This document shows positions 8,619 through 62,192 of a stretch of 64,000 bases of DNA, one piece after another. The first letter of the stretch is position 1, and every line of letters starts with the position of its first letter. This DNA is from Patescibacteria group bacterium (lineage in GTDB: Bacteria > Patescibacteriota > Doudnabacteria > UBA920). The stretch covers positions 50,179-114,178 of the forward strand of contig JAMDAY010000007.1 of assembly GCA_023484515.1 (NCBI GenBank), given 5' to 3'. The notes under the pieces are model-generated. The model worked only from the letters and a program-made list of their open reading frames with translations, was not told where the DNA came from and searched no databases. The translations under genes were made by a program, and so were the position numbers.

Positions 8619-9383
8619 ATGGTAATACCGGAATTATTGCAAAATTTGGGGCTTTCTGGCGAGGAAACAAGAATATATTTGGCTGCTTTGGAAATGGGGA
8701 AAAGCCTGCCTAAGCATTTGGCGGAAAAAGCCGGAGTAAAACGGCCCACGCTTTACAAGCTAATGCCGGGACTGCTGGAAAAAGGCCTGCTTTCGGAAAC
8801 CGTCATGGGCAAGCGGAGATATTTCGTGGGGGAAGACCCCGAAGTTTTGCTAAACAAGAAGCAGTCGGAAATAGACCAAATGGAAGCGCTGCTGCCCCGG
8901 CTCCGCATGTTACTGGCCACCGCCTCCCACAAACCGAAAATAATCTTTTACGAAGGGCTGGAAGGCATAAAAAAATTATATTTTGACAACTTGCGGGAAA
9001 AGCAGCCAATTTTGGAATTCGTCTCTTTGGAAAAGATTAGTCCCAAAATAGAATTCCATTCGTCTAACTATTACATCCCTCAAAGGATTAAAAGAAAAAT
9101 TCCCATAAAAATAATTATTAGCGGCGCGGCCAAATCCCATTCTATAAAGTTAAAAACCGACCCTTATGCCTTAAGGGAAATTAAACAAATTAGCGAAAAA
9201 CATTTTCCTCTGCCCTTAGACTGCTATATTTACGGCAACAACGTGTCTTTTGCCCTTTACCGCAGGGACAGCGAGCCGGTCGGAGTGATTATCAGGTCAA
9301 AAGAAATTGCCACGGCCATGAGATCGCTGTTTAATTTTGTCTGGCAAGCTGTTCCGACCGACAATTTGTCGCGCCACCACTAA
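8619..9383 (+). CDS. TrmB-family HTH transcriptional regulator, paralog 2
   Basis: Same N-terminal LGLSxxExxIYLAALEMG motif and overall length as the other two paralogs. Confidence 0.7.
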   Translation: MVIPELLQNLGLSGEETRIYLAALEMGKSLPKHLAEKAGVKRPTLYKLMPGLLEKGLLSETVMGKRRYFVGEDPEVLLNKKQSEIDQMEALLPRLRMLLATASHKPKIIFYEGLEGIKKLYFDNLREKQPILEFVSLEKISPKIEFHSSNYYIPQRIKRKIPIKIIISGAAKSHSIKLKTDPYALREIKQISEKHFPLPLDCYIYGNNVSFALYRRDSEPVGVIIRSKEIATAMRSLFNFVWQAVPTDNLSRHH

Positions 9384-14138: not shown

Positions 14139-14774
14139 TTACTGTCGTTCTTTCCGGCCCTCCCTTAATTTCTTCATTCCTTCCGCCGCAAAAACCAGGC
14201 TGGCAATAAACCCGCCTATTTTTTTGTTATATGATTCGTCTATTAACAGTCCTTCCGCGTTAAAAGCTTTCTGCACCGGCCCGAACATTACGGTTTCGCG
14301 GATGGCAAACATGGAAAAATTCGCCATTAAGGGCCGTAATTGTTCCATGGCTCTGGCTCCCCCGGTTATCCCGGATGAGACACCGGCAAATCCTACCGCT
14401 TTATACTCGAATTCCTTATATAACCAATCCAGCGCGTTCTTGAGCACTGCCGGATACCCGTGGTTATATTCCGGCGTAACGATTACGAACGCATCCGCAG
14501 CCTCGGCAATTGTGCTCCACTTTTGGACATTGGCGTCAGGATACTTTTTATTTAAGGACGCCGGCGGAGGGTCGCAAAACATAAACGGCAAAGTCAGTTC
14601 CTTAAAATCCACCAATACGGATTCATGCCCGCTATCCAATAGTATTTTATTAATTAGCCGCGCCGGAAAAATACTTTTCCGGCTGTCGCGCACGCTCCCT
14701 AAAATGACAGGAATGTTCAATTTCATAAATATAAATTTATAATAGTAGACGATCAATTTTGCAAAATCAAACAC
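14139..14774 (-). CDS. NAD(P)H-dependent FMN reductase family oxidoreductase
   Basis: MKLNIPVILGSVRDSRKS...VIVTPEYNHGYPAVLKNALDW pattern of the FMN_red family. Confidence 0.7.
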   Translation of the reverse strand: MFDFAKLIVYYYKFIFMKLNIPVILGSVRDSRKSIFPARLINKILLDSGHESVLVDFKELTLPFMFCDPPPASLNKKYPDANVQKWSTIAEAADAFVIVTPEYNHGYPAVLKNALDWLYKEFEYKAVGFAGVSSGITGGARAMEQLRPLMANFSMFAIRETVMFGPVQKAFNAEGLLIDESYNKKIGGFIASLVFAAEGMKKLREGRKERQ

Positions 14775-15420
14775 CTGTTTGAACCGGAAAAATTTGTCTG
14801 AAAGACTTTAAGCGGGATTTTCCCATGCGCGGCAAACTCATTAATTCAATATCCGAAGCCTGCGCCAGGTTATCTATTGTCTTAAAAACTGTTAAGAGAT
14901 CGCTGGCTGTTTGCCTGCCAATTCCCGAAATTTGCGTGAGGATATTTATTTGCCGCTGCCAAGGAGTAATTATTTTCCGCTGCTGGCGGCATTGTTGCAG
15001 GTTTGCTGCCGCATTGGCGGAATATTTTTTCGCCAGCAAGCGCAATATGCTGGAAGAATCTTCTTCGTTGCAAGTCCTGACTAAAGAAACTTTTTTAGTA
15101 ACCGTGATCCAAAGGATTACCCCGCGGATAACATCGGACGACACGCGCCCTTGATGGTATAAGCCCCCGCCTTCCAGTAACAGCAAAGGATGCTTGCAGC
15201 TTCTTGCCAGCCAGGCCACTTGCCGAAACAAGCGGCCGTCGGCAATGGAAGTAATAAAGTCGCTAATGGTTTTGCGTTCAACAAAACAATCGGAACCAAT
15301 AACGTAGTCCGTAGCCAGGCTGCCAAACTGGACGGAAAACCCCAAATGGGACAAAAATTTCGGCACCAAGCACCTCTGCTCGCGGAAATCCGCCAAAATT
15401 GAATTTTTGTTTATATGCAT
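14767..15420 (-). CDS. ERCC4-type (XPF/Mus81/Hef-like) nuclease domain protein with C-terminal HhH
   Basis: ERKTISDFITSIADGRLFRQ matches the ERK...D...GR ERCC4 signature. Start set at MHINKNS (15420), which has a GGAGGG RBS. Confidence 0.6.
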   Translation of the reverse strand: MHINKNSILADFREQRCLVPKFLSHLGFSVQFGSLATDYVIGSDCFVERKTISDFITSIADGRLFRQVAWLARSCKHPLLLLEGGGLYHQGRVSSDVIRGVILWITVTKKVSLVRTCNEEDSSSILRLLAKKYSANAAANLQQCRQQRKIITPWQRQINILTQISGIGRQTASDLLTVFKTIDNLAQASDIELMSLPRMGKSRLKSFRQIFPVQTGV

Positions 15421-15438
15421 AAACCCTCCGGATTTAAC

Positions 15439-15600
15439 GGGTCTGTTGCCGAATGCCATTTTGGCTGCAATTTTAGAATTTCGGCATCTTGGCCAAAAAA
15501 TTTTTTCCCCTTAGCCTACGGCTAAACATCAAAAATTATTTTAGCCAATCTGCTCGGAATTCTGAAATTTCGCCTTAAAAGCGCATTCGGCAGCAGACCC
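15439..15600. mobile_element. 162-bp MITE-like element, copy 1 (terminal inverted repeats GGGTCTGTTGCCGAATGC / GCATTCGGCAGCAGACCC)
   Basis: Near-identical second copy at 61969-62130; internal TTAGCC-TAC-GGCTAA hairpin; TTAAC/TTAAT-like flanks. Confidence 0.7.
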
Positions 15601-15602
15601 TT

Positions 15603-15642
15603 AACGGCCGCCATTCCAATTAAAGGAATGGCGGCCGTTTTG
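15603..15642. terminator. perfect 15-bp hairpin AACGGCCGCCATTCC...GGAATGGCGGCCGTT followed by TTTTG
   Basis: Read directly, adjacent to MITE copy 1. Confidence 0.5.
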
Positions 15643-16277: not shown

Positions 16278-16362
16278 TGGTGCCCTCGGTGGGATTCGAA
16301 CCCACAAGCCTTGCGGCACATGCACCTCAAGCATGCACGTATTCCAGTTCCGTCACGAGGGC
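16278..16362 (-). tRNA. tRNA-Leu (anticodon GAG), class II with long variable arm, CCA encoded
   Basis: Manual fold: acceptor GCCCTCG/CGAGGGC, 3-bp D-stem with GG, anticodon stem CATGC/GCATG with loop TTGAGGT, variable arm GCC-GCAA-GGC, T-arm GTGGG-TTCGAAT-CCCAC. Confidence 0.85.
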
Positions 16363-16368
16363 CAAAGA

Positions 16369-17022
16369 TTAGGGATTTTCTCTATTTATTGCTAATGCAG
16401 TATACACTTTTCTGTATTTTCTTTCAAGCATCGGGTTTTTTTCATTTGCATACATCTTGGCAATAATCTTCTGCGCTTCAGATTTAGCATATTTAAGCTG
16501 ATATACCTTCGCTCCAAAACTTGTATTGAAATGCCCTTTTACTTTAAGAATAAAAAATAACCTTTTTTGTACCCACTGGAGATGCTTTAAACTAGCTGAA
16601 ATAAATTCTAAATAAAACATAAAACTGGAAGCCCAACGTTTGTCCCAATAAGAATAAAAAGTTCCATCACCGTCAAAACTGCCTCTAAGAAAATCAAAAA
16701 AATATTTATTCGGAATTTTTAGTCCCGCTATTGTTTTAGATTTTGCTGGAGTTAGCCCTATTGATAATAAAAAACTATAAAATTTAATATCGCCAAACTG
16801 TACCCAGTAAGCAGCCTTGTTTTGATCGTAACCACTATGCTTTATGGATATCTTATTTTTTATACCCAAACAATTTTTAAAAATTTTTACCAATTCCAGA
16901 TCTTTTGACACAAAGGCCATGTGCCTACCATCATTGTAAAGACACCCGTCAGTGGCGATCAAGCCTACCACATAAGCCAAATTTGAGGACCATTGAGTTT
17001 TTATTTTATTTGCAGGTCTCAT
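16369..17022 (-). CDS. LAGLIDADG homing endonuclease, double-motif single-chain type
   Basis: Two LAGLIDADG motifs (LAYVVGLIATDG and FDFLRGSFDGDG). ATG at 17022; the ORF-track start 17085 is TTG. Stop lies 6 nt before the tRNA-Leu 5' end. Confidence 0.85.
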   Translation of the reverse strand: MRPANKIKTQWSSNLAYVVGLIATDGCLYNDGRHMAFVSKDLELVKIFKNCLGIKNKISIKHSGYDQNKAAYWVQFGDIKFYSFLLSIGLTPAKSKTIAGLKIPNKYFFDFLRGSFDGDGTFYSYWDKRWASSFMFYLEFISASLKHLQWVQKRLFFILKVKGHFNTSFGAKVYQLKYAKSEAQKIIAKMYANEKNPMLERKYRKVYTALAINRENP

Positions 17023-17050
17023 TTGTCTCAATGTATAAGCGTATACCAAT

Positions 17051-17085
17051 ATTATAGCAAAACTGCGGAAAAAATCCAGAGACAA
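17051..17085 (-). promoter_or_regulatory. extended -10 (TGcTATAAT) promoter candidate for the LAGLIDADG-tRNA unit
   Basis: Read directly on the minus strand; the -35 is weak. Confidence 0.3.
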
Positions 17086-17090
17086 AATGC

Positions 17091-17117
17091 AGGGACAGGT
17101 CTAGACCTGTCCCTACG
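17091..17117 (-). terminator. REP-like perfect palindrome AGGGACAGGTC-TAGA-CCTGTCCCT acting as the pyrB terminator
   Basis: Sibling palindrome at 47612-47641. Confidence 0.55.
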
Positions 17118-17131
17118 GTAATGGCACAATA

Positions 17132-21810: not shown

Positions 21811-21818
21811 TGTGTATT

Positions 21819-21902
21819 TGTAGTTAGCTGATTTATCACGGTCGTTCGCGAACGACGTGATTTATCAGCTGTTATTAACAGCCCATAAATGGGCTAACTA
21901 CA
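21819..21902. mobile_element. 'TGTAGTTAGC...GCTAACTACA' palindromic element, copy A, carrying a nested 19-nt palindromic insert flanked by a TGATTTATCA duplication
   Basis: Aligned by eye to the copies at 60129-60184 and 24204-24261. Confidence 0.65.
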
Positions 21903-21935
21903 TCTTAAATCTTAAATCCTAAATCTTAAATCTTT
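21903..21935. repeat. heptamer tandem repeat (CTTAAAT)x5 abutting the carA stop codon
   Basis: Read directly; a related TTTAGGATTTAAGATTT motif occurs at the pyrE 3' end (25484-25505). Confidence 0.6.
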
Positions 21936-25470: not shown

Positions 25471-25491
25471 AAAAAAATTTAGATATAAAAT

Positions 25492-26124
25492 TTAGGATTT
25501 AAGATTTTTTGCTTCTAAATATTTTTTACCATGGCCAACTGCCGTATTAATGGGAATTCCCGAATCGCACAGCGGGCAACGGCCTTCTTCATACATAGGC
25601 ACCTCTAAAATATCCAGAGGGAAAAAAGGGGTGTTGAAATATTGGCTGTTTACTTCCCTGGTATTTTTATTTACCATCACGCACACGCCCGCAACTTGGC
25701 CGCCAATAGACCTTACAGCATCCGTGGTTTTTTTTGCGCTGCCCCCGGTCTGGGTTAAATCTTCCACCACCAAAATTTTTTTCCCGGCAACATACTTGTC
25801 GTATCCTCTGGTAAACTGCATCCCGCCTTCCGGAGTTTTTTCCGCATACACGCCAAAAATTTCCGTGCCTTTAATTTGGGAAAGATGAAACGCCACCCAT
25901 TGCGATAAAATAACCCCTCCCAAAACCGGACCCACTATTGTATCTATATCCAGATCTTTCACCGCTTCTGCCATAAGGCGGCAAACCTCGGAAGTCTCCT
26001 TGGTATGGGGGTATAAGGCATCTTTATTAATATACGTATCAAAATGCTTGCCTGAAGTTCCGACAAAATGGCTGCCTGCAATAACTGCACCGACTTGTTT
26101 TAAAATATCCAATACTTGACTCAT
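25492..26124 (-). CDS. pyrE: orotate phosphoribosyltransferase-like type I PRTase
   Basis: PRPP-binding motif ILVVEDLTQTGGS; pathway context. Confidence 0.75.
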   Translation of the reverse strand: MSQVLDILKQVGAVIAGSHFVGTSGKHFDTYINKDALYPHTKETSEVCRLMAEAVKDLDIDTIVGPVLGGVILSQWVAFHLSQIKGTEIFGVYAEKTPEGGMQFTRGYDKYVAGKKILVVEDLTQTGGSAKKTTDAVRSIGGQVAGVCVMVNKNTREVNSQYFNTPFFPLDILEVPMYEEGRCPLCDSGIPINTAVGHGKKYLEAKNLKS

Positions 26125-27283: not shown

Positions 27284-28141
27284 TTATATTGATAACTGGT
27301 CTTTTATGCTGACGGCAGAAACGGGAGAAGGGATGGAATCGGAAACAAACACCTTTTCAGCCAAAGCCTGCAGGCGTTCCAAAGAATCGTGGAGAAATAA
27401 GCCGTGGGATGCCGCGCAGCAAATTTTTTTAGCGCCACACTCCTTCATTCGTTCCAAAGCCTTGATCATAGTAGAGCCGGTGCTGATCATATCGTCCAGA
27501 ATAAGGACATTTTTTCCTTCCACGTCCAGCTCGCCTTCCAATTTTTCTATATTCCGGTAAGAAATGGTGTTATCTTTGTAATCCTGTCGCACTTTTTTCA
27601 TGGATTGCCCCCCATGCTGCTTAACCAAATAATTCGCGCCCTGGTCAGGGCCGATAATTTCAAATCCTTCGCCGCCAAACACCTGCTTGGCATGTGCCAC
27701 CAAGGCCTTGCTTAAGGAATGGTTTTGGATTTTCAGGCCGCAATATTCGCTTTCACCTTCTTCGTTCAAAAAATGGCAGTCAAAAGTCACGAATTTTTCG
27801 CAACCCATCATCCTTAACATCCGGCAAACCACGTCAGCGCTGGCCACTTCTCCTTCCAAAAGTTTTTTGTGCTGCCGCGCATAAGGCAAGTAAGGAGAAA
27901 CAACCGTGACTTTGGCGCCAACTTCGTTCAGCGCATCCAAAACCAAGAACAGTTCCATAAATGAGTGGTTCTGGTGCGGATACAGCCGGTGGAAAAGCGT
28001 TATCTCTTTGCCTTTAAAACTATTAAGATGCGGAATGTGCACGTGGCTGTCGCCGTCCGGAAAAGTGCCAATTTCTATATTTGGGGTTAAGATGTCGCTA
28101 AAATTCGGGGAAACAAGCCTTAAGGGCGCGGATTGGTCCAT
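27284..28141 (-). CDS. prs: ribose-phosphate pyrophosphokinase (PRPP synthetase)
   Basis: PRPP-binding loop VLILDDMISTGSTM; start moved to MDQSAPL (28141). Confidence 0.85.
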   Translation of the reverse strand: MDQSAPLRLVSPNFSDILTPNIEIGTFPDGDSHVHIPHLNSFKGKEITLFHRLYPHQNHSFMELFLVLDALNEVGAKVTVVSPYLPYARQHKKLLEGEVASADVVCRMLRMMGCEKFVTFDCHFLNEEGESEYCGLKIQNHSLSKALVAHAKQVFGGEGFEIIGPDQGANYLVKQHGGQSMKKVRQDYKDNTISYRNIEKLEGELDVEGKNVLILDDMISTGSTMIKALERMKECGAKKICCAASHGLFLHDSLERLQALAEKVFVSDSIPSPVSAVSIKDQLSI

Positions 28142-28317
28142 ATAAATTTTAATTTTATTAATGTCAACGACCTTATGATAACAAATTTTATATAGTATTC
28201 GCAAATATACAAATTTAATGCTAATATACAAATCGCCGCCTGGCCAATTATTTCAGTAAATATGGCCGAATGGCTATTTATATATTTGTTACAATTTATA
28301 TTTTTGCGAATACTCCC

Positions 28318-28617
28318 ATGAAAAAATTCCAGCGTAAAATTGAAAATTTTATTTGTGAAAATTGCGGCTTTAGCGTTAAAGGCACGGGCTACACCAACCA
28401 TTGCCCCAAATGCCTGTTTTCCAAGCATGTTGACATTAACCCCGGCGACCGCGCCAACACTTGCGGCGGCTTAATGGAACCAGTTGGTTTGGAATTGGAT
28501 CACGGCGAATATATTATAGTATACGAATGCGAAAAATGCGGGGAAATAAAAAAAAACAAAGCGGATAAAAATGACGCTTTTGACGAACTGCTTAAGCTCG
28601 CTAAATCTCTTGCATAA
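28318..28617 (+). CDS. RNHCP-domain zinc-ribbon protein
   Basis: CENCGFSVKGTGYTNHCPKCLFSKH matches the RNHCP (xNHCPxC) signature; start at MKKFQRK. Confidence 0.55.
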   Translation: MKKFQRKIENFICENCGFSVKGTGYTNHCPKCLFSKHVDINPGDRANTCGGLMEPVGLELDHGEYIIVYECEKCGEIKKNKADKNDAFDELLKLAKSLA

Positions 28618-28673
28618 TCCTATCTTTTTGTTATAATATCAAGGCTGACTATTTAATTTACAAAAGGCGGTAA

Positions 28674-28750
28674 GGGCGGTTAGCTCAGCTGGTTAGAGCG
28701 CCTCGTTTACACCGAGGAGGTCAAAGGTTCGAATCCTTTATCGCCCACCA
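28674..28750 (+). tRNA. tRNA-Val (anticodon TAC)
   Basis: Manual fold: acceptor GGGCGGT/ATCGCCC, anticodon loop TTTACAC, T-loop TTCGAAT, CCA encoded. Confidence 0.85.
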
Positions 28751-28795
28751 GAAAAAGTTATTTTTGCTTAAGGTATTAAAAAATGATAAAATAAA

Positions 28796-28872
28796 GCCGG
28801 ACTAGCTCATCGGTTTAGAGCGCTGCCCTGAAGAGGCAGGCGTACCCAGTTCGACTCTGGGGTCCGGCACCA
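28796..28872 (+). tRNA. tRNA-Phe (anticodon GAA)
   Basis: Acceptor GCCGGAC/GTCCGGC, anticodon loop CTGAAGA, CCA encoded. Confidence 0.85.
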
Positions 28873-28873
28873 A

Positions 28874-28947
28874 GCGGCTATGGTTCAATGGTAGAACTTC
28901 TCCTTGCCATGGAGAGGATAGGGGTTCGATTCCCCTTAGCCGCTCCA
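28874..28947 (+). tRNA. tRNA-Gly (anticodon GCC), discriminator U73
   Basis: Acceptor GCGGCTA/TAGCCGC, anticodon loop TTGCCAT, CCA encoded; 1-nt spacer after tRNA-Phe. Confidence 0.85.
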
Positions 28948-29041
28948 CAAAGAACACCAGTTTTTGCTGGCGTTTTTTGTTTGACTTGATAAGTTTTATG
29001 CTTATCCGATAGGAGAATAGAATTAAAAACTATCGCCTGCA

Positions 29042-29611
29042 TCAATGCAAACCGGAAAAACTATATACAATAAACCATATAGGTATACTCACTAAAAATA
29101 AACGTTCAAAAAAACCACTATAAGAGTGCCTTAATTTTGGGATTAACCAAATAATTACAAAGCTGAAAAAGGCTATCATGACAAACCAGGTAACTGAAAT
29201 CATATAAGAATTTGCATAAGCTTGGTAGGCGTTTACCATAAAAATAAAAATCGTTGAAAATTTAATTATTGCAAGTATTAAGTGGATAATGCCAGTTTTA
29301 GTCAGTTTACCGGAGCCGGTTAAATCTGCGTGATAATAAAGTAAGGCAATGGAGCTTATAATACTGCCCGCCAAAATATATAGCTGCCAAACCATAGATA
29401 CTTTTTCAATTAAAAGGTATGAAAAAAGAGAAGTATAAGCAAATATAAACGAGAGTCCATATAAAATATAAACTTTCCGGGACTTTACATCAGCGCCGTA
29501 ATCACTGACCGTATTTTTGAGAAAATCAAAAGACGGATACTTATTATGAAGCAGCCCAAGTAATATAATGTTGGCAACGCAACAAATAATTACTAATATA
29601 AGTAAAAGCAT
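29042..29611 (-). CDS. hypothetical multi-pass membrane protein (AT-rich, island gene)
   Basis: 189 aa with five or six hydrophobic helices; flanked by similar terminator-like direct repeats (28943-28985 and 29781-29822). Confidence 0.5.
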   Translation of the reverse strand: MLLLILVIICCVANIILLGLLHNKYPSFDFLKNTVSDYGADVKSRKVYILYGLSFIFAYTSLFSYLLIEKVSMVWQLYILAGSIISSIALLYYHADLTGSGKLTKTGIIHLILAIIKFSTIFIFMVNAYQAYANSYMISVTWFVMIAFFSFVIIWLIPKLRHSYSGFFERLFLVSIPIWFIVYSFSGLH

Positions 29612-29847
29612 AAGCTTATTATACTTCGCAAACTTGATTGTGCATAGTCTAAACTTATTTGACCTAACAAGCTTTGAACCATATAGCCAAACCCCTAAAC
29701 CGCAAATTCCGGCACGTAAAACCCTTCGCCAACTTTGACAATTTCATTTCTAGTTGCCATTACCAACGAGCTCCACAAAAAACACCAACAATTTGAAGTT
29801 GGTGATTTTTGTTTGGCAATAAAATTACCCTAGCGCTTTGTGTTTAT

Positions 29848-30111
29848 TTAGGCACCAACCTCTTTAGCGATTGCCTGTTTAATCAGGGTTTGGTAAGGGA
29901 TATCCAGCCGATTGGCTTTTACTTTTAGTTCTGAAACCAGATAGCTGGGCAGACGAATGGAAATGGAGGTGGATGTGGGTTTTAGATTCGGAAAACGCGC
30001 ACGTTTAAATTTTGACCAATCCAAATATTCGGTGGAGTCATGGGTATTCCAAAACTTCGCCTCTTCGTCTTCATTTTTAAATTTAGGGATTTTTTTAAGC
30101 TTTTTTGCCAT
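29848..30111 (-). CDS. brnA: BrnA antitoxin (CopG/RHH-type, DUF4415 family)
   Basis: EAKFWNTHDSTEY...IRLPSYLVSELKVKANRLDIPYQTLIK is typical of BrnA; overlaps the brnT 3' end by 17 nt. Confidence 0.7.
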   Translation of the reverse strand: MAKKLKKIPKFKNEDEEAKFWNTHDSTEYLDWSKFKRARFPNLKPTSTSISIRLPSYLVSELKVKANRLDIPYQTLIKQAIAKEVGA

Positions 30112-30397
30112 AATTGCTCCTTTCCTTTCTATTTGCGCTGCGCGCTGAAATTATCCTGACTTTATTATTCCTGATGGTAAAAACAATGAATAAAATTTGC
30201 CCCTTATTGTTCGGCCCTACCAGTTGATATCTCTTTTCGCCAATACTATGCCTGTCGTCAAACAAGACGGCATAATCGCTTAAAAAAGGCTGTTCGGCTT
30301 CCACGGGCATTATGTTATGACGGAGCCGAACCTTGTTACTGTTATGTTCGTCCCATTCAAACTGCAAAGGCTCGGGCAAATCTATAATGTTTTGCAT
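30095..30397 (-). CDS. brnT: BrnT ribonuclease toxin (DUF497 family)
   Basis: FEWDEHNSNKVRLRH N-terminal signature of BrnT; toxin-first operon order. Confidence 0.7.
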   Translation of the reverse strand: MQNIIDLPEPLQFEWDEHNSNKVRLRHNIMPVEAEQPFLSDYAVLFDDRHSIGEKRYQLVGPNNKGQILFIVFTIRNNKVRIISARSANRKERSNYGKKA

Positions 30398-30680
30398 ATT
30401 AATATTGTATATGAAATTCGCTACATTGTCAAGTTTTGGCGAAAAAAGTGTGTCAATTTGTGTTAGTTCGTGTCAGTGGAAATAGTGTATAGCGGGGTGG
30501 GGTAAAAGGTGGTATAATTAAGGCAAACAATTAAACCACAAAAGAAACCAAATGAAATCTATAACTACCAAGCCAAGGACAGTAAATTTTCCACTGAGAC
30601 AAATAATTTGATTTCTAACATACTTGTTTGACTTTGGCCGCTTTTCCGTCTATTATAGAACTACGGTTAATTTTAAAACT

Positions 30681-30908
30681 ATGGATGAAAACAAAGTTTT
30701 ACAAAAACTTATTGAGCACGATGAACAGCTTGCGGATATTAAGGAAAGAATGGCTACTAAAGATGATATTCGCGAAATTCGACAGGTTATGGACAAAGCC
30801 ATGACTATCTTAGAGCGTCTTGACCAGGAACGGGTTTTTACCGTGGAGTGGATACGCAGGATTGAAGGAGACGTAGACAAAATTAAACGCCAATTACATA
30901 TTGCATAA
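30681..30908 (+). CDS. small coiled-coil hypothetical protein (75 aa from MDENKV)
   Basis: Charged heptad-like sequence; 36 nt upstream of the nucleotidyltransferase gene. Confidence 0.35.
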   Translation: MDENKVLQKLIEHDEQLADIKERMATKDDIREIRQVMDKAMTILERLDQERVFTVEWIRRIEGDVDKIKRQLHIA

Positions 30909-30943
30909 TACCCCCAAAGCCGGGGGTATTTTTTAAGTAAAAT

Positions 30944-31597
30944 ATGAAAACAACACCACAAACCCAAGAGCTGGCAAACTCCGTAAATTTAGCAACAACC
31001 GTTTTTAACGCTTGCCAGGTTGAATACCGAATTTTGGGCTCGGTATTAATTGTTTCCCACACCGGAAAGCTATTCCGGCGTATTGGCGATTTGGATATTT
31101 TGCTTGATGAAAGCAAGAAGGCCTGCGTTTTTGGCAAACTAAAGGAAATGGGCGTTGAACTTGTTGCAAGACGTTGGCTAAATTTCTCCTGGACAGAAAC
31201 CAGAAAAGACGGATATTTAGGCCTAACGTTCCTGTTAGTAGGTAAATTTAATAAAGAATACTTTAGCTATCGGTTTCTAAAAGTCTGCGAGCTAAGGATT
31301 AATGCTGATTATTTAACCCCCACTACTTATTGCTTCCACGGTATAAATTTTATTGGCATCCCTATTTCATCAGCCGTTGCCGGTATCCGTAAATCTTTGT
31401 TAAATCCAAAAAGAAAATTAGACCAGGAAGTTTTAGGCGAAGATTTTACCAAATCCAAGACCAGAACTTATAATTGCATTAACGTTTACGTCTTCGGCAT
31501 TAAAATTCCGTTCCTCTATGACGTGTTTTCCTGTCTCTATAACATATACGGCGGCCTTCGCGTTAAATTTGGCCGCAAATACGAAGTATGGGACTAA
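30944..31597 (+). CDS. nucleotidyltransferase-fold protein (polymerase-beta-like; ANT(2'')/Lnu-like)
   Basis: ILGSVLIVSHTGKLFRRIGDLDILLDE matches the hG[GS]x9-13Dh[DE] nucleotidyltransferase motif. Confidence 0.5.
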   Translation: MKTTPQTQELANSVNLATTVFNACQVEYRILGSVLIVSHTGKLFRRIGDLDILLDESKKACVFGKLKEMGVELVARRWLNFSWTETRKDGYLGLTFLLVGKFNKEYFSYRFLKVCELRINADYLTPTTYCFHGINFIGIPISSAVAGIRKSLLNPKRKLDQEVLGEDFTKSKTRTYNCINVYVFGIKIPFLYDVFSCLYNIYGGLRVKFGRKYEVWD

Positions 31598-31756
31598 CAC
31601 ACAAACTGTCTCTATGTGAAAATTCGGATTCAATATTGGATGGAGGTGTCACAAAATCCCTTTAAAATAAAAGGGTTTTTAATTGAGAAAATGGCTGTTA
31701 TTTAGAGGAAAATCATTTTAAAGCTCATAAATAAGCCAAAATATGGCAAAACAGCC

Positions 31757-31785
31757 TTGAAAAAACTGCAAAAAAGAGGTATAAT
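31757..31785 (+). promoter_or_regulatory. near-consensus promoter TTGAAA-17-TATAAT, directly followed by a terminator hairpin
   Basis: Read directly. Confidence 0.4.
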
Positions 31786-31795
31786 TAATTTACAA

Positions 31796-31818
31796 AGTGC
31801 TATTTGGCACTCTTTTTT
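31796..31818 (+). terminator. terminator AGTGC-TATTTG-GCACTC + T6
   Basis: Read directly. Confidence 0.5.
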
Positions 31819-32039
31819 AATTAAAAGGGGCTTTAAATAGCGGCTTTACCGGCACTGTCAGACTATTAACAATAATCCGTTATTGCTGTTAGTGCCGGCG
31901 GTTGTCAATTTTTTGTCCACTTTTTACCATTACAAAAAAGCGCGGCAAAAAACGGTCAAACAGCCGTTCCTTAATAATCGCATACTTGTCGTTCCCTTAA
32001 ATAAGGAATGATAGGGGAGAAAGGAGTTTGATTTAAAGA

Positions 32040-32735
32040 ATGAAAGCTCTTTCTCGCCTTCAGTCTGCCATTGATCAAAGCTCCTTTATAGGAATTACCG
32101 CTTTGATCGCGCTGGTGCCGGTGGCTTTCCCCCATTTAACCCTGGCCGCCGAAACAGCTCAGCCTGAAGCGCAATCGGCTTTAGTCTTTGAAATCAAAGA
32201 TCCCTCTGTTTTAAACAGCGAAAATAAAAATTCCATCACTATGGACCAGGTGGTCCAAACCGACCCCCTGGTGGCCAAAGTTAAGGCATATTTGGAAGAC
32301 CACGGTTCGCCTTTGGCCGAATACGCCGCGCAAATCGTGCAGCAGCCCCAATGGCAAAGGGCCTTGGGAGTCAGCTACGTGGAAAGCAATATGGGCATCC
32401 ACTGCTATAATAACAATTGCAGCGGGATAGGAGTTAAGCCCGGACACCCTTCTTGGAGGAAATACGCCACCAAATTGGACTGGTTTATAGACCTGAATAA
32501 TTTGCTGGAAACTCCTCTCTATAAGGAAAAATATAACACTTTCCAAAAAATGAAGGGCGTTTACGTGCAGCCGGGCAGCCAAAGCTGGGTTTACGGCGCT
32601 CAAAAAGTCTATAACGAATTAATGCAGATTACCGAGGAAGCAAACGCCGAACGCCAGCAGCTTGCGCAAAAATATACCAATCCGATTTCCATTGCCATGG
32701 TCGGAACTCCAGAACTAGCCAAATTGGACCAATAA
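32040..32735 (+). CDS. secreted glucosaminidase-domain (GH73, FlgJ-type) peptidoglycan hydrolase-like protein
   Basis: Signal peptide; YVESNMGIHCYNNNCSGIGVK resembles the ESGwG...NNLFGIK motif of the glucosaminidase family (PF01832). RBS GGGGAGAAAGGAG. Confidence 0.55.
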   Translation: MKALSRLQSAIDQSSFIGITALIALVPVAFPHLTLAAETAQPEAQSALVFEIKDPSVLNSENKNSITMDQVVQTDPLVAKVKAYLEDHGSPLAEYAAQIVQQPQWQRALGVSYVESNMGIHCYNNNCSGIGVKPGHPSWRKYATKLDWFIDLNNLLETPLYKEKYNTFQKMKGVYVQPGSQSWVYGAQKVYNELMQITEEANAERQQLAQKYTNPISIAMVGTPELAKLDQ

Positions 32736-32779
32736 TGAAATCCCCCATCCAAAACGGATGGGGGATTTAAATTTTACGA

Positions 32780-32867
32780 TGGTGCCCAGGGAGGGAATCG
32801 AACCCTCAATCCCTTGCGGGCGACAGATTTTAAGTCTGTTGCGTATACCAGTTCCGCCACCTGGGCT
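32780..32867 (-). tRNA. tRNA-Leu (anticodon TAA), class II, CCA encoded
   Basis: Acceptor GCCCAGG/CCTGGGC, anticodon loop CTTAAAA, long variable arm, T-arm GAGGG-TTCGATT-CCCTC. Confidence 0.85.
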
Positions 32868-33653: not shown

Positions 33654-35039
33654 GTGACCACCAAAACCGCATCCAAAAAAAAGAACGGCTTCCGCAAATT
33701 CTGGCGCTTGGGCATTGAAGAATACAATACCCAAAACTTTGACATTGGCCCGGACGGGGAACTGATAGTCCGCGAAGGCAACTACCAGTACAATATTTTT
33801 GACATTGTAAAAAAATACGGGACTTCCACGGAGATTGTTTTTCCCACGGTCATTGAAAACCGCGTGCGGGACCTGATTGAAACCTTTAACGCTTACATAA
33901 AAGTACTGGGCTACCGGGGCAAGTTCCACTACCATTACGCCATGAAAGTCAACCAGAACAAGGAATTCGTGCTGCCGGCCGTGGCCGAAGGGGCAAATTT
34001 GGACGTGGCCAGCGCCAACGAATTATTCTTGGTCAAACGGATGATAGAACAGGACAAGTTTAACAACAAAATCCGCGTCATTTGCAACGGGCCCAAGACT
34101 GAAAAATATATTGGCCTGATAGAAGAGCTTAAGAGCAAGGGCCTGATTGTCGTTCCCATTATTGAAGACCATGTAGAGCTGGAGCGCTTGAAAAAATTCA
34201 AGGGCGAGGTGGGGGTGCGCGTAAATTTGGACGTAAAAGTCAACAGCCATTGGGACAAAAAATTCAACCGTTACGGGTTCACCGAGGCCGAACTGCTGCG
34301 GCTGGGCAAAATTAAGAACCTGTCCACGTTGCATTACCATATTTCCAGCCAGATTGAACGGATGGAAGGCATGCTTAAGCCGCTCAAGCGGGCGCTGGAG
34401 CTTTACGCCAAGCTGCGGGAAAAGAATCCCGGCCTGGACACCTTGGACATGGGCGGGGGAGCGGGCGTGCCTTACGAAAAACGCAAGCATTTTTATTCCG
34501 CGAAAAATTTAATCCATCACCTGGTTAAGACTGCCAAAAATACCTGCGACCGGCTGCAGGTTAGGCATCCCAACTTGATAGTGGAATGGGGCAGGTACGT
34601 GGCCGCGCCGGCGCAAATTACCATCTACAAAATACTGGCGGAAAAAACCGTGGAAAACAAAGGTAATAACAAGTGGTATGTAATTGACGGCAGCTTTATG
34701 AACGATTTGATTGACACCTGGGCCATACACCAAAAGTGGCACGTGGTGCCGGTTAATTACATGAACACGCGCAAGCTGGAAAAGGTCTGGCTGGCAGGCG
34801 CCTCCTGCGACAGCGACGACAAATATACTTCCGGCGGCGGTTACATTTTGTTGCCCAGGCTAAGCGAGACCGACGAGCTGTATGTCGCCTTTTTGGACAC
34901 CGGCGCTTACCAGGATTCCCTGGCCTCGCACCACTGCCTGCTGTCCAGCCCGGCCAAACTTATAGCCCAAAACGGGGAAATAAAAATTGCCCGCCGCCGC
35001 GAAGTCCCGGAAGAGGTGGGAAAACTTTTTGGCTGGTAA
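33654..35039 (+). CDS. speA: arginine decarboxylase-like PLP-dependent (Orn/DAP/Arg decarboxylase fold III) enzyme
   Basis: HYHYAMKVN (PLP lysine region) and C-terminal beta-sandwich; 461 aa. Confidence 0.7.
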   Translation: MTTKTASKKKNGFRKFWRLGIEEYNTQNFDIGPDGELIVREGNYQYNIFDIVKKYGTSTEIVFPTVIENRVRDLIETFNAYIKVLGYRGKFHYHYAMKVNQNKEFVLPAVAEGANLDVASANELFLVKRMIEQDKFNNKIRVICNGPKTEKYIGLIEELKSKGLIVVPIIEDHVELERLKKFKGEVGVRVNLDVKVNSHWDKKFNRYGFTEAELLRLGKIKNLSTLHYHISSQIERMEGMLKPLKRALELYAKLREKNPGLDTLDMGGGAGVPYEKRKHFYSAKNLIHHLVKTAKNTCDRLQVRHPNLIVEWGRYVAAPAQITIYKILAEKTVENKGNNKWYVIDGSFMNDLIDTWAIHQKWHVVPVNYMNTRKLEKVWLAGASCDSDDKYTSGGGYILLPRLSETDELYVAFLDTGAYQDSLASHHCLLSSPAKLIAQNGEIKIARRREVPEEVGKLFGW

Positions 35040-35743
35040 TTAACAATCTCTTAATATCATATGCGCAAAGGCTGTCTTTAACCCGGCAACGCCACCATGG
35101 GCGGGGGAGCGGGCGTGCCTTACGAAAAACGCAAGCATTTTTATTCCGCGAAAAATTTAATCCATCACCTGGTTAAGACTGCCAAAAATACCTGCGACCG
35201 GCTGCAGGTTAGGCATCCCAACTTGATAGTGGAATGGGGCAGGTACGTGGCCGCGCCGGCGCAAATTACCATCTACAAAATACTGGCGGAAAAAACCGTG
35301 GAAAACAAAGGTAATAACAAGTGGTATGTAATTGACGGCAGCTTTATGAACGATTTGATTGACACCTGGGCCATACACCAAAAGTGGCACGTGGTGCCGG
35401 TTAATTACATGAACACGCGCAAGCTGGAAAAGGTCTGGCTGGCAGGCGCCTCCTGCGACAGCGACGACAAATATACTTCCGGCGGCGGTTACATTTTGTT
35501 GCCCAGGCTAAGCGAGACCGACGAGCTGTATGTCGCCTTTTTGGACACCGGCGCTTACCAGGATTCCCTGGCCTCGCACCACTGCCTGCTGTCCAGCCCG
35601 GCCAAACTTATAGCCCAAAACGGGGAAATAAAAATTGCCCGCCGCCGCGAAGTCCCGGAAGAGGTGGGAAAACTTTTTGGCTGGTAATTAACAATCTCTT
35701 AATATCATATGCGCAAAGGCTGTCTTTAACCCGGCAACGCCAC
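34448..35743 (+). repeat. perfect tandem direct duplication, 2 x 648 bp (34448-35095 and 35096-35743), covering the speA 3' third plus the 3' UTR up to the terminator loop
   Basis: ORF-track proteins 33654..35039 (C-terminal 196 aa) and 35097..35687 are identical; the DNA is identical by eye, including the 56-nt UTR. Confidence 0.85.
35097..35687 (+). pseudogene. duplicated 3' fragment of speA (promoterless 196-aa C-terminal copy)
   Basis: Second repeat unit; starts at the internal Met of speA. Confidence 0.6.
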
Positions 35744-47576: not shown

Positions 47577-47611
47577 GTTGCAATATGATTAATGATGCCT
47601 TAAACTGTAGG

Positions 47612-47641
47612 GACAGGCCGCGGCCTGTCCCTACATTATAT
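47612..47641. repeat. REP-like perfect palindrome GTAGGGACAGGCC-GC-GGCCTGTCCCTAC (sibling of 17091-17117)
   Basis: Read directly, just upstream of the folC start. Confidence 0.6.
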
Positions 47642-52637: not shown

Positions 52638-52752
52638 TTAAAAATGTAAATATCAAAATTAAAAATGACAATGTAAAATATTAAAGTTGGTTTTCATTTT
52701 CATTTTTAACTTTACATCGTCATTTTACATTTTGATCTTTTCACTTTACCTT

Positions 52753-53253
52753 ATGTTAATCCTTGGCATAGACCCCGGAACCGCCACCACCGGCTACGGG
52801 ATAATTGAATCGACAAAAAATAAAAGCGAACATAGGCTCGCGGATTTCGGCGTAATTTCTACCGACAAAAAACTAAAAGACGCCGAGCGCTTGGAAATTC
52901 TGGCTAATGATTTAGACCAGATTATTAAAAAATACAGACCGGACGTTATTGGGATTGAAAAATTATTTTTGACCACCAACCAAAAAACCGTCATGACCGT
53001 GTCCCAGGCCCGCGGAGTGGCATTATTGACCGCGCAGCAGCATAAAATCCCCATTTTGGAATTTACCCCCCTGCAAGTGAAAAATTTCATTTGCGGCTAC
53101 GGCAAGGCCGAAAAAAAACAGGTGCAATACATTGTGCAAAAAACTTTCAAACTCAAAACCGCGCCCAAACCCGACGACGCCGCCGACGCCCTGGCCATTG
53201 CTTTATGCGCGGCGCATCATTTTAACAGAATTTTTAAACAAAATAAGATTTAA
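52753..53253 (+). CDS. ruvC: crossover junction endodeoxyribonuclease RuvC
   Basis: MLILGIDPGTATTGYGII N-terminus; catalytic acidic residues; start moved from the ORF-track 52687. Confidence 0.85.
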   Translation: MLILGIDPGTATTGYGIIESTKNKSEHRLADFGVISTDKKLKDAERLEILANDLDQIIKKYRPDVIGIEKLFLTTNQKTVMTVSQARGVALLTAQQHKIPILEFTPLQVKNFICGYGKAEKKQVQYIVQKTFKLKTAPKPDDAADALAIALCAAHHFNRIFKQNKI

Positions 53254-53316
53254 TCTTAAAATCATCTCTAATCTAACAGCCTGCAAGCCAGCCATAAAAC
53301 CACGGGATTTCCACTA

Positions 53317-53358
53317 TTGCCAAAACGCCATTTTTTTTAAAAAATGGCGTTTTGGCAA
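53317..53358. terminator. perfect 20-bp palindrome TTGCCAAAACGCCATTTTTT/AAAAAATGGCGTTTTGGCAA
   Basis: Read directly after ruvC. Confidence 0.6.
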
Positions 53359-53455
53359 CTGGACAAGAACAATATTCGTGATATACTAGGGCTAACCTTA
53401 AAACGCTCCCAAAAAACGGCTTAATTAAAAGCCTTGGGCAGCAAAGGAGAATAAT

Positions 53456-59927: not shown

Positions 59928-60128
59928 TCCTCCTTCTCCTTTCGCGTATCCCCGCCGGGTGTTTTTGTTTTAACGGAGAAGAATAGCAAAAAATAGATAT
60001 ATTGACAATTGAATTCCACTTATAATATAATATATTTAGCCTTAAGTAAGGCTTTTTTATTTCTTTTGATTAGATTTGTCAGAATAGGTTGACACTTGTT
60101 CGCTGACAAATCGACACGCTACAATAGT

Positions 60129-60184
60129 TGTAGTTAGCCCATTTATGGGCTGTCCTTTAACAGCTGATAAATCAGCTAACTACA
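60129..60184. mobile_element. 'TGTAGTTAGC...GCTAACTACA' palindromic element, canonical 56-bp copy B
   Basis: TIRs plus two perfect sub-hairpins (GCCCATTTATGGGC and AGCTGATAAATCAGCT). Confidence 0.7.
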
Positions 60185-60293
60185 ATTACTGCACCCTCTC
60201 TGTCACCCGAAGGGTGACATCTCCCCTAAGGGGGAGGGTTCCGCAGTTTCCGCGATCCGTGTTCATCCGTAATCTATCCGTATTAATCATCCA

Positions 60294-61079
60294 ATGGATT
60301 ATAAGGTTACTGAACAATTACAATCTCTAGGCCTACAAAAACATGAATCCCAAGTCTATTTGGCGCTTTTGGAACTGGGGCAGGGGACTGTTAGCGACAT
60401 CAGTAAGACAGCCCAACTAAACAGAACAACTGGATACGATATATTGGAAAGATTGTCTCTTTACGGGCTGGCCAGCAGAACTACGCGAGACAATAAAAAA
60501 ACGATGTACATTGCCGAGCCGCCGCACCGCCTTAGGCAGTATTTGGAAAACAAAAAACACCAGGCAGAAAGGCGCCTGGCGGACGTCCATGATTTAATCC
60601 CCGATTTGCAGAACCTTTACAAAAAAGAAAACAAACCGGTTATTAAATTCTTTGAAGGCCGGGAAGGCATTAAAAATATTTATTGGCATACGCTGGAAGC
60701 GAAAAGCATAATCTATTCCGTTCTGGATTTAAGCGTGTATTTACCGGAGTATGACCTGTTTGGCAAGGACTATATCCGCCAACGGTCAAAACTCGGCGTA
60801 AAAGAAAAAGCCCTGGTCTTAAAAAACAAAGAAGGTGAGGAGTTTTATGACACTACCTATAAAAATAATCCATTATACCAAAAATTTACCGAATACCGCT
60901 GGCTGGAAAAACAATTTCCTTTTACGCCTGCGGCTGAAGTCAACATTTATGACGATATGGTAATGGGCGTACTGGCCAAGCCAGGCGAAAACGCGGCGTT
61001 TGAAATAAAAAATCCTTCCTTTGCTAATTCTTTAAAAATTATTTTTGAACTGGCCTGGGAACAGGCAAAATCATTATGA
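60294..61079 (+). CDS. TrmB-family HTH transcriptional regulator, paralog 3
   Basis: LQSLGLQKHESQVYLALLELG N-terminal motif. Confidence 0.7.
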   Translation: MDYKVTEQLQSLGLQKHESQVYLALLELGQGTVSDISKTAQLNRTTGYDILERLSLYGLASRTTRDNKKTMYIAEPPHRLRQYLENKKHQAERRLADVHDLIPDLQNLYKKENKPVIKFFEGREGIKNIYWHTLEAKSIIYSVLDLSVYLPEYDLFGKDYIRQRSKLGVKEKALVLKNKEGEEFYDTTYKNNPLYQKFTEYRWLEKQFPFTPAAEVNIYDDMVMGVLAKPGENAAFEIKNPSFANSLKIIFELAWEQAKSL

Positions 61080-61093
61080 CAAAAGGAGGCATT

Positions 61094-61967
61094 ATGCATA
61101 TTCCGATAAAAAAACTTAAAAACGGGTTTGAGATGCCGGGGTTTGGTATGGGAACTTATAAAATGGGAGAAGAAAACCGGGATCAAGACGATATAAACAC
61201 CATTAAAGCCGCAATTGATTTAGGCATTACCCATATTGACACCGCAGAGGCCTATGCTGACGGCAGTGCCGAAGAAATAGTCGGCAAGGCCATAAAAGGC
61301 CGCGTGCGTTCAGGCCTGTTCATTGTTTCCAAGGTCCAGGAAAGCCATTTAAATTACCAAGAAACCAAAACCGCTTTGCACCGCGTTTAAAAAGATTAGA
61401 AACCGGCTATCTTGACTTATACCTATTGCATCGCTATCCAGGCAGCGACAGCAAGCTGAAAGAATGCTTAAAAGCACTGGCAGAATTAAAAGACGAAAAC
61501 CTCATAAAAAATATTGGAATCAGCAACTTTAACCTGGAACATACCAAGCAGGCCTGCGAATGGTCCAAATACCCGGTGGTTGCTACCCAAGTCCACTACA
61601 ACTTGCAATTCCGCGAACCTGAAAAAACCGATTTGCTGGATTTTTGCCAAAATAATGACATAATGTTAATCGCCTGGCGGCCTGTAAATAAAGCATATCA
61701 AGCAAAAAATAAAATCAACTTCACCAAACCGGGTATTCCCGTTTTGGATGAAATTAGCAAAGAATATAAAAAGCCCCCTCCCAGGTTGCCATCAACTGGC
61801 TTATTTCGCAACCGAATGTGGTGACTTTAGTTAAAACCTCTAATCTTAATCATTTACGGGAAAATCTGGGAGCTATTGGCTGGCAAATGAGCGCTGGCGA
61901 TATAGAAAAAATACGAAAGGGATTTCCAAACCAGCAGCCTGTTTCAGATACCGTGCCTTTAGCTTAA
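61094..61967 (+). pseudogene. aldo-keto reductase gene with two -1 frameshifts, both in homopolymers (near 61383-61388 in a T/A run; near 61787-61792 in a C5 run)
   Basis: Three frames each carry consecutive AKR segments, including TALHRV|LKRLETGYLDLYLLH and EYKKP|PAQVAINWLISQPNVV...; AAGGAGG RBS. Confidence 0.7.
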
Positions 61968-61968
61968 T

Positions 61969-62130
61969 GGGTCTGTTGCCGAATGCTATTTTGGCTGCAA
62001 TTTTAGAATTTCGGCATCTTGGCCAAAAAATTTTTTCTTCTTAGCCTGCGGCTAAACATCAAAAATTATTTTGACCAAGCTGCTCGGAATTCTGAAATTT
62101 CGCCTTAAAAGCGCATTCGGCAGCAGACCC
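61969..62130. mobile_element. 162-bp MITE-like element, copy 2
   Basis: About 95% identical by eye to 15439-15600; starts 1 nt after the AKR stop codon within the GCTTAATGGG context. Confidence 0.7.
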
Positions 62131-62156
62131 TTAACGCACTATTTACTTTTATTATC

Positions 62157-62192
62157 AAAACTCGCCCCGAGCAATGCACGGGGCGAGTTTTT
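62157..62192. terminator. terminator AAACTCGCCCCG-AGCAATGCA-CGGGGCGAGTTTTT
   Basis: Read directly downstream of jag. Confidence 0.6.

Follow-up and report, generated by a model that had tools for sequence, protein, structure and literature searches.

Two nearly identical 162-nt segments, at positions 15439–15600 and 61969–62130, lie 46 kb apart amid housekeeping genes in the stretch of Patescibacteria DNA analyzed here (64,000 nt, hereafter the window). What kind of element they represent is the question raised by this locus, which the initial annotation had left between a non-autonomous MITE and a structured small RNA gene. The coordinates and ends given there for the two copies are correct. 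Its estimate of about eight mismatches was right in that the differences are few, the exact count being seven of 162 positions (95.7% identity), and all seven fall within or next to loops and bulges of the fold. In the window there are four occurrences of the 18-nt end motif, one at each end of each copy, compared with 0.08 expected. With flanks included, the repeated segments, DNA repeat family D2, are 15434–15606 and 61964–62136, that is, the element plus 5–6 bases per side; duplication of a larger segment, which the initial annotation had named as a finding that would refute its reading, is thereby excluded. The coding capacity of the element is nil, its sole ATG-led frame stopping after three codons. 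In the Logan data, contigs of the genome that the window comes from stop 24 and 32 nt within the element, as repeats would cause.

Copy 1 (15439–15600, + strand) is in the forward orientation of the family alignment. It is bordered on one side by a hairpin (15606–15637) located after a DUF3276 gene and on the other by the ribosome-binding site (15428–15433) and ATG (15420) of an ERCC4-HhH nuclease gene, and both genes run antisense to it. The longest ORF at this position (14767–15459) overlaps the copy by 21 nt. The ERCC4-HhH gene probably starts with the ATG at 15420, which has GGAGG in front of it, and the 217-residue product on record indicates that the gene caller took this start, so that copy 1 is intergenic. 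Copy 2 (61969–62130, + strand) is located in the 3' region of a frameshifted aldo/keto-reductase (AKR) pseudogene and begins 1 nt past the TAA stop (61965–61967) of the last AKR fragment. Thus, the earlier claims that both copies are intergenic and that the second directly follows the AKR stop codon hold. A bidirectional terminator hairpin (62160–62190), located 30 nt downstream of copy 2, is shared with the convergent jag gene. The AKR gene itself (61076–61967) is broken into three ORFs, and its stop codon is overlapped by the target-site duplication (TSD) of copy 2. Just upstream lies one of three paralogous genes (1068–1856, 8619–9383 and 60294–61079) that also show up at the DNA level as repeat families D3, D4 and D9; the paralogue at 60294–61079, the one scanned against Pfam, matches TrmB. 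About 0.8 kb from copy 1, an ORF with a LAGLIDADG_3 domain (16369–17085, minus strand) adjoins tRNA-Leu(GAG) at 16278–16362.

The whole element forms a single imperfect fold-back hairpin of ∼65 bp. The predicted folding energy is −78.5 kcal/mol for RNA of the + strand (z −12.7), −79.1 kcal/mol for the reverse strand (z −10.7), and −46.4 kcal/mol with DNA parameters (z −11.2). The 18-bp terminal inverted repeats (TIRs) initially described are real in that the tips are complementary at 17 of 18 positions; their limit at 18 bp is not, as the inverted repeat spans the entire element. The ends (GGGNCTRTYGCCGAATGC) start with GGG. In a 17-sequence alignment, ∼33 nt are conserved on either side, at 15439–15471 on the left (GGGTCTGTTGCCGAATGCCATTTTGGCTGCAAT; columns 1–33 near-invariant) and at 15568–15600 on the right (...ATTTCGCCTTAAAAGCGCATTCGGCAGCAGACCC), both on the + strand, and these ends are presumed to be the TIRs for transposase binding. 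The two ends differ from each other at fixed positions (C.C, A.G, C.T and T.G).

At the tip of the hairpin is a conserved, A/T-rich apical module (15495–15542, + strand) with the sequence AAAAAATTTTTCCGCTTAnnn-loop-nnnTAAACATCAAAATTTATTT, a conserved internal loop of TCCCC (also given as TCCGC) opposite ACATC, and a small covarying 6-bp stem at 15511–15525, where the TTAGCC-TAC-GGCTAA hairpin reported initially is indeed present. Only the ATCAA core of the IHF consensus fits this module by eye. The stems between the ends and the apical module are free to vary in sequence, with pairing kept. The element has a polarity, as copies align at ∼84% in one orientation and ∼69% in the other. A copy at locus L005 combines the same ends with a very different GC-rich interior and still folds (−77.7); ends and interior thus look like exchangeable modules. 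Elsewhere in the window, a 54-nt near-perfect palindrome (53310–53363, + strand; TTGCCAAAACGCCATTTTTT / AAAAAATGGCGTTTTGGCAA) is located downstream of the ORF at 52687–53253. Its arms (TTGCCAAAACGCCATTTT) resemble the TIR core, with a covariance-model score of 17.8 bits (E 0.077), and it may be a short relative or decayed miniature of the element, or an unrelated hairpin.

The immediate flanks carry the signature of insertion. Copy 1 is bordered by TTAAC on both sides (15434–15438 and 15601–15605), and copy 2 by TTAAT (61964–61968, overlapping the TAA stop at 61965–61967) and TTAAC (62131–62135), just as had been read initially. Across 19 sites, 57 of 95 positions in the 5-nt flanks match, compared with 37.8±4.1 in shuffled pairings, and the excess is seen at k=5 only, with none at k=3, 4, 6, 7 or 8. 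Flank pairs are perfect at four of the 19 sites (TTAAC twice, ATGAG and TATAT) and match at four of five positions at three; about half of the sites have no recognizable TSD. A 36-nt derivative at locus L017 is flanked by a perfect ATTAA/ATTAA duplication. The target 5-mers (TTAAC, ATGAG, TATAT, ATTAA and TAATA) are AT-rich.

A filled and an empty version could be compared of one site, which has a sugar-transferase gene on its upstream side and a pilB-like gene on its downstream side. The filled site, in L010, L020 and L008, reads AAGCC-ATGAG-(162 nt)-ATGAG-ACAAAAAAGACAG. The empty site, in four contigs of one relative (L045–L048; 87% protein identity, same synteny), reads AAGCC-ATGAG-TCAGAAAGACAG with a single ATGAG, and the covariance model finds no match there. 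This pair, the kind of comparison proposed in the initial annotation, shows that the element inserts with a 5-bp target duplication. The proposal of a target-site duplication was therefore right, as both the k=5 statistic and the empty site support it; the duplicated target is 5 bp long and not a TTAA tetramer. An empty counterpart was also sought for window copy 1; ERCC4 homologues are at most 61% identical, synteny is absent at both of the loci compared (57% and 56% identical), and look-ups of the exact protein gave only short Logan contigs that stop within the element.

Relatives of the element are confined to the same phylum among the species-representative genomes scanned with the end motif, where all eight loci are in Patescibacteria MAGs labeled Magasanikbacteria, Uhrbacteria or Saccharibacteria. 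A metagenome scan with the left-end motif added 18 further loci, many of them from groundwater. By nhmmer and a covariance model, there are 24 full-length matches, corresponding to 19 distinct insertion sites. All are intergenic, with neighbor genes differing from site to site, and none contains an ORF. Lengths are 156–162 nt in 23 of the 24, the exception being a 205-nt copy at L014 (772–976), the orthologue of the L007 copy, whose right arm is interrupted by 43 inserted nt containing a GC-rich hairpin (CGGGCTTCGCCCG). Copies may be dense: three lie within 8 kb at L006, and two within the 64 kb of the window. BLAST searches of phage and plasmid collections gave only chance matches of ∼20–35 nt, with no match among 72,556 plasmids; one scan of viral contigs gave no match, and the other 11 chance matches, none of which was confirmed by the covariance model. 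In one orthologous pair (L025 5160–5432 and L009 6365–6637), the element is located 14–22 nt from an HU (Bac_DNA_binding) gene.

Besides full-length copies, there are short derivatives that keep both tips, of 36 nt (L001 1319–1354, L019 738–773, L017 9846–9881) and 53 nt (L006 7213–7265). These recurrent, internally deleted forms consist of the first ∼29 nt of the element fused to its last 7 nt at a GCA microhomology. A second 162-nt family (‘B’), found at L017 8956–9119, has other ends (GACCTGTTGCG...) and a TAATA/TAATA duplication, and shares the apical module with the element studied here. Family B also occurs in L008 (968–1018, where the contig ends inside it) and is missing at the corresponding position of L010, whose flank there is ∼98% identical. 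At L010 6330–6490, a further insertion of ∼160 nt, with inverted repeats of its own (TCATTGGCAGTAGCATCCGAAGCAAT...ATTGCTTCGTCGTCCGACTCCTCGCAATGA), is seen relative to the empty-site contigs L045–L048, possibly a small mobile element of a third kind.

Taken together, the unrelated intergenic sites across genomes, the 5-bp flank statistic and the filled/empty pair establish the MITE reading. The results support a previously undescribed MITE family of the ERIC/Correia/TIME kind, hosted by several Patescibacteria (CPR) lineages; of the two possibilities first offered, the MITE stands and the stand-alone small RNA gene is not supported. A search of the literature in full text, in which the end sequence was also looked for, brought up no relevant paper and no MITE described in Patescibacteria (CPR).

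To what extent the hairpin matters was assessed by covariation, an analysis suggested in the initial annotation, and the structure does covary. In the RNAalifold consensus of the 17-sequence alignment (58 predicted pairs), 27 pairs have both sides changed in some sequences with pairing kept, compared with 14.7±1.9 in shuffles, none of which reached 27 in 500 trials. Paired cells amount to 96.0% versus 83.9% in shuffles, and register-slid controls give 6–13 covarying pairs. Three pairs of orthologous insertions were also compared against 300 nt of flank. The element is 95% identical between L007 and L014 (flank 70–81%), 83% between L009 and L025 (flank 56–74%) and 100% between L008 and L010 (flank 87–95%). 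This higher conservation of orthologous copies than of flanking genes argues for structural constraint. The 27 columns that differ between L009 and L025 include six compensated pairs, three G.U changes and 12 unpaired differences, and no pair is broken. Such maintenance of pairing by compensation, also between orthologous copies, suggests selection on the hairpin itself. The overall explanation that we consider probable is thus a mobile family without a transposase of its own, which generates 5-bp TSDs and whose fold-back hairpin is under selection.

A related possibility, to which we give limited credence, is that of a mobile structured module that spreads horizontally and is retained under purifying selection, with exchangeable parts, namely ends for mobility and an apical cargo module common to two families, and a transposase of a type not so far recognized in these reduced genomes. 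As such, it may serve as a hairpin for RNase III or for stability, or as a DNA site of architectural function, to name examples.

It is also conceivable, if unlikely, that the family is a purely selfish MITE whose fold-back is a by-product of two similar ends, the hairpin having no role. The mobility evidence (5-bp TSD and empty site) fits such an element too, as do the absence of orientation bias and of a conserved promoter or terminator and the weak strand signal, and a long stem-loop is a general feature of MITEs in bacteria (PMC3184786, PMC4133298). The apparent constraint would then reflect recent spread, gene conversion, or template switching that corrects quasi-palindromes, and the last of these could indeed account for part of the compensatory change without selection. 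However, the asymmetric mismatches and loops (C.C, A.G, C.T and TCCGC/ACATC), which palindrome correction would erase, persist across genomes. Two copies within one MAG (L007 and L008) are only ∼87% alike, with 21 of 162 columns differing and five compensated pairs, such that copy-to-copy homogenization does not explain the pattern and cannot be strong. Orthologous copies are also more conserved than the adjoining coding DNA. We continue to favor a mobile family with a selected hairpin.

No candidate for the enzyme that would move such a family was found nearby. No Pfam transposase domain is found in the 50 ORFs of the window, which bears out the initial remark that none was visible, nor in 10 neighbors of other copies. 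Among the 26 loci retrieved by end patterns there is no autonomous parent with matching ends, nothing bounded being longer than 205 nt, and no long TIR pairs were found. No recurring neighbor gene suggests itself as a transposase, the sole one that recurs being the sugar transferase. The element inserts into AT-rich intergenic 5-mers and duplicates them, and internal deletions that retain the ends give rise to the 36- and 53-nt miniatures. In the mechanism we propose, a transposase acting in trans would bind and cleave at the ∼33-bp conserved ends; it would most likely belong to the DDE enzymes and cut with a 5-bp stagger, like those of the Tn3 family. For the conserved, A/T-rich apical module, an architectural role (bending, HU/IHF-type) is possible, as is that of other functional cargo.

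The Tn3-like features raise the possibility that the element is a TIME, a miniature derivative of the Tn3 family moved by a Tn3-type transposase. TIMEs likewise lack a transposase, use AT-rich targets with 5–6-bp TSDs, have long (∼38 bp) conserved ends starting in G-runs, and are predicted to form a long RNA stem-loop (PMC4133298); the studied family matches them in its 5-bp TSD in AT-rich targets, its GGG tips, its conserved ends in the range of ∼33–38 bp and its long stem-loop (PMC4133298). Nevertheless, the ends do not show the GGGG...TAAG signature, and position 4 is freely variable. Homology to Tn3-family inverted repeats, by which TIMEs are defined, is undetectable: in a comparison of low power with reference repeats of that family, identity is within the range of shuffles (best p = 0.03, uncorrected, in 21 comparisons). 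TIMEs are at least 262 bp long, mostly single-copy, and found on Pseudomonas plasmids and chromosomes, in contrast to the shorter, multi-copy family described here (three copies in 8 kb at L006). Plasmids are rich in Tn3-family transposons, yet none of the 72,556 searched has a match, and no Tn3-type transposase was seen near any copy. As a result, we regard membership in the TIMEs as rather improbable, and the reading of a mobile, hairpin-bearing family outside them is retained.

In behavior, the element is closest to the ERIC (enterobacterial repetitive intergenic consensus) and Correia (CREE/NEMIS) repeats. These MITEs form stem-loops over their whole length, contain central modules and have no known parent (PMC3184786). 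The similarity extends to size (∼105–160 bp), non-coding nature, intergenic location, multiple copies, TIRs and the full-length stem-loop (PMC3184786). ERIC and Correia repeats are often co-transcribed with their neighbors, and the central module of Correia is an IHF site (PMC3184786). They differ in that they duplicate TA, compared with 5 bp in the studied family, and in that their hosts are Proteobacteria rather than Patescibacteria, and they are presumably unrelated to it in sequence.

If copies are transcribed together with neighboring genes, as in those repeats, a putative RNA-level role is likely. Read-through transcripts would, according to the predicted fold, hold an imperfect duplex of ∼65 bp in either orientation, and the most likely setting of the hairpin would be such a long stem-loop, which could govern the processing or stability of the mRNA in the way of ERIC and Correia repeats. 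Alternatively, the hairpin may have a role as a DNA cruciform or in protein binding. The strand signal is a weak bias: G.U pairs outnumber A.C mismatches on the aligned strand by 43 to 18, and by 27 to 18 when one fixed T.G is left out.

A vertically inherited, stand-alone structured small RNA gene that involves no transposon is a very improbable explanation. Covariation is indeed very strong and loops are conserved, and a terminator-like hairpin follows both window copies on the + strand. However, at other loci this hairpin is upstream or absent, and there is no conserved promoter around the element, only one weak promoter-like site in one copy. Among independent sites, nine copies are co-directional with both neighbors, four antisense and four mixed, which is not significant. 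The lack of orientation bias and of a conserved promoter/terminator arrangement makes such a gene unlikely, and an empty site, 5-bp TSDs and unrelated genomic contexts also speak against it. No Rfam family covers the element at the gathering threshold, which only tRNAs pass in the whole window, and even at E≤10 the sub-threshold matches are at chance level.

Other palindromic repeats are likewise imperfect and conserved in structure rather than sequence. REPINs and BIMEs resemble the element as repeated, intergenic, hairpin-forming units with pairing maintained, and some of them bind architectural proteins; REPINs differ in having no TSD, short REP units and a tie to a RAYT gene, none of which applies here. 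To our knowledge, IntI, RAYT and Y1 transposases produce no variable 5-bp TSDs. An integron attC, a REPIN moved by RAYT or an IS200/IS605-type PATE is extremely improbable, as the sites have variable 5-bp TSDs, cassette arrays and co-oriented tandem arrangements are absent, housekeeping genes flank the copies, there is no GTAG/REP core and the ends are true long TIRs. On anatomy, the attC, REPIN, PATE and retron readings were ruled out, attC on the basis of copies 46 kb apart amid housekeeping genes and a right end without a GTTRRRY core.

A mobile family of this kind has several implications. Patescibacteria (CPR) genomes are tiny. The family is 70–90% identical across lineages whose proteins are ∼65–70% identical, which points to DNA exchange between episymbionts. 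Strains could be typed by it, some breaks in assemblies are accounted for, and the element is a handle for finding its transposase. Given its compensatory evolution and a conservation above that of the neighboring genes, it is a good candidate for domestication as a hairpin element.

Several other repeats were observed in the window. A second family of palindromic motifs (GTAGTTAGCCCATTTATGGGCTGT...ACAGCTGATAAATCAGCTAACTAC, two small hairpins within an outer stem) is present at 60113–60200 (+) and 21814–21933 (−); the latter copy has a 29-nt insert, and behind the copy lie AAATCTTAAATCCTAAATC-type repeats, seen again at 25481–25507. Intergenic GTAGGGACAGG-N6-CCTGTCCCTAC hairpins, another small repeat, are common to 17084–17119 and 47602–47637. 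A perfect 300-nt direct repeat (34448–34747 and 35096–35395, period 648 nt) gives an Orn/DAP/Arg decarboxylase gene (ORFs 33654–35039 and 35097–35687) a second copy of its C-terminal domain; it arose either by tandem duplication in recent times or as an artefact of assembly. Between two tRNA clusters, a stretch of low GC content (28000–32800, 38%) contains three ORFs without Pfam matches (30653–30967, 30944–31597 and 32040–32735) and a BrnT toxin/CopG antitoxin pair (29848–30397), and may be an integrated island.
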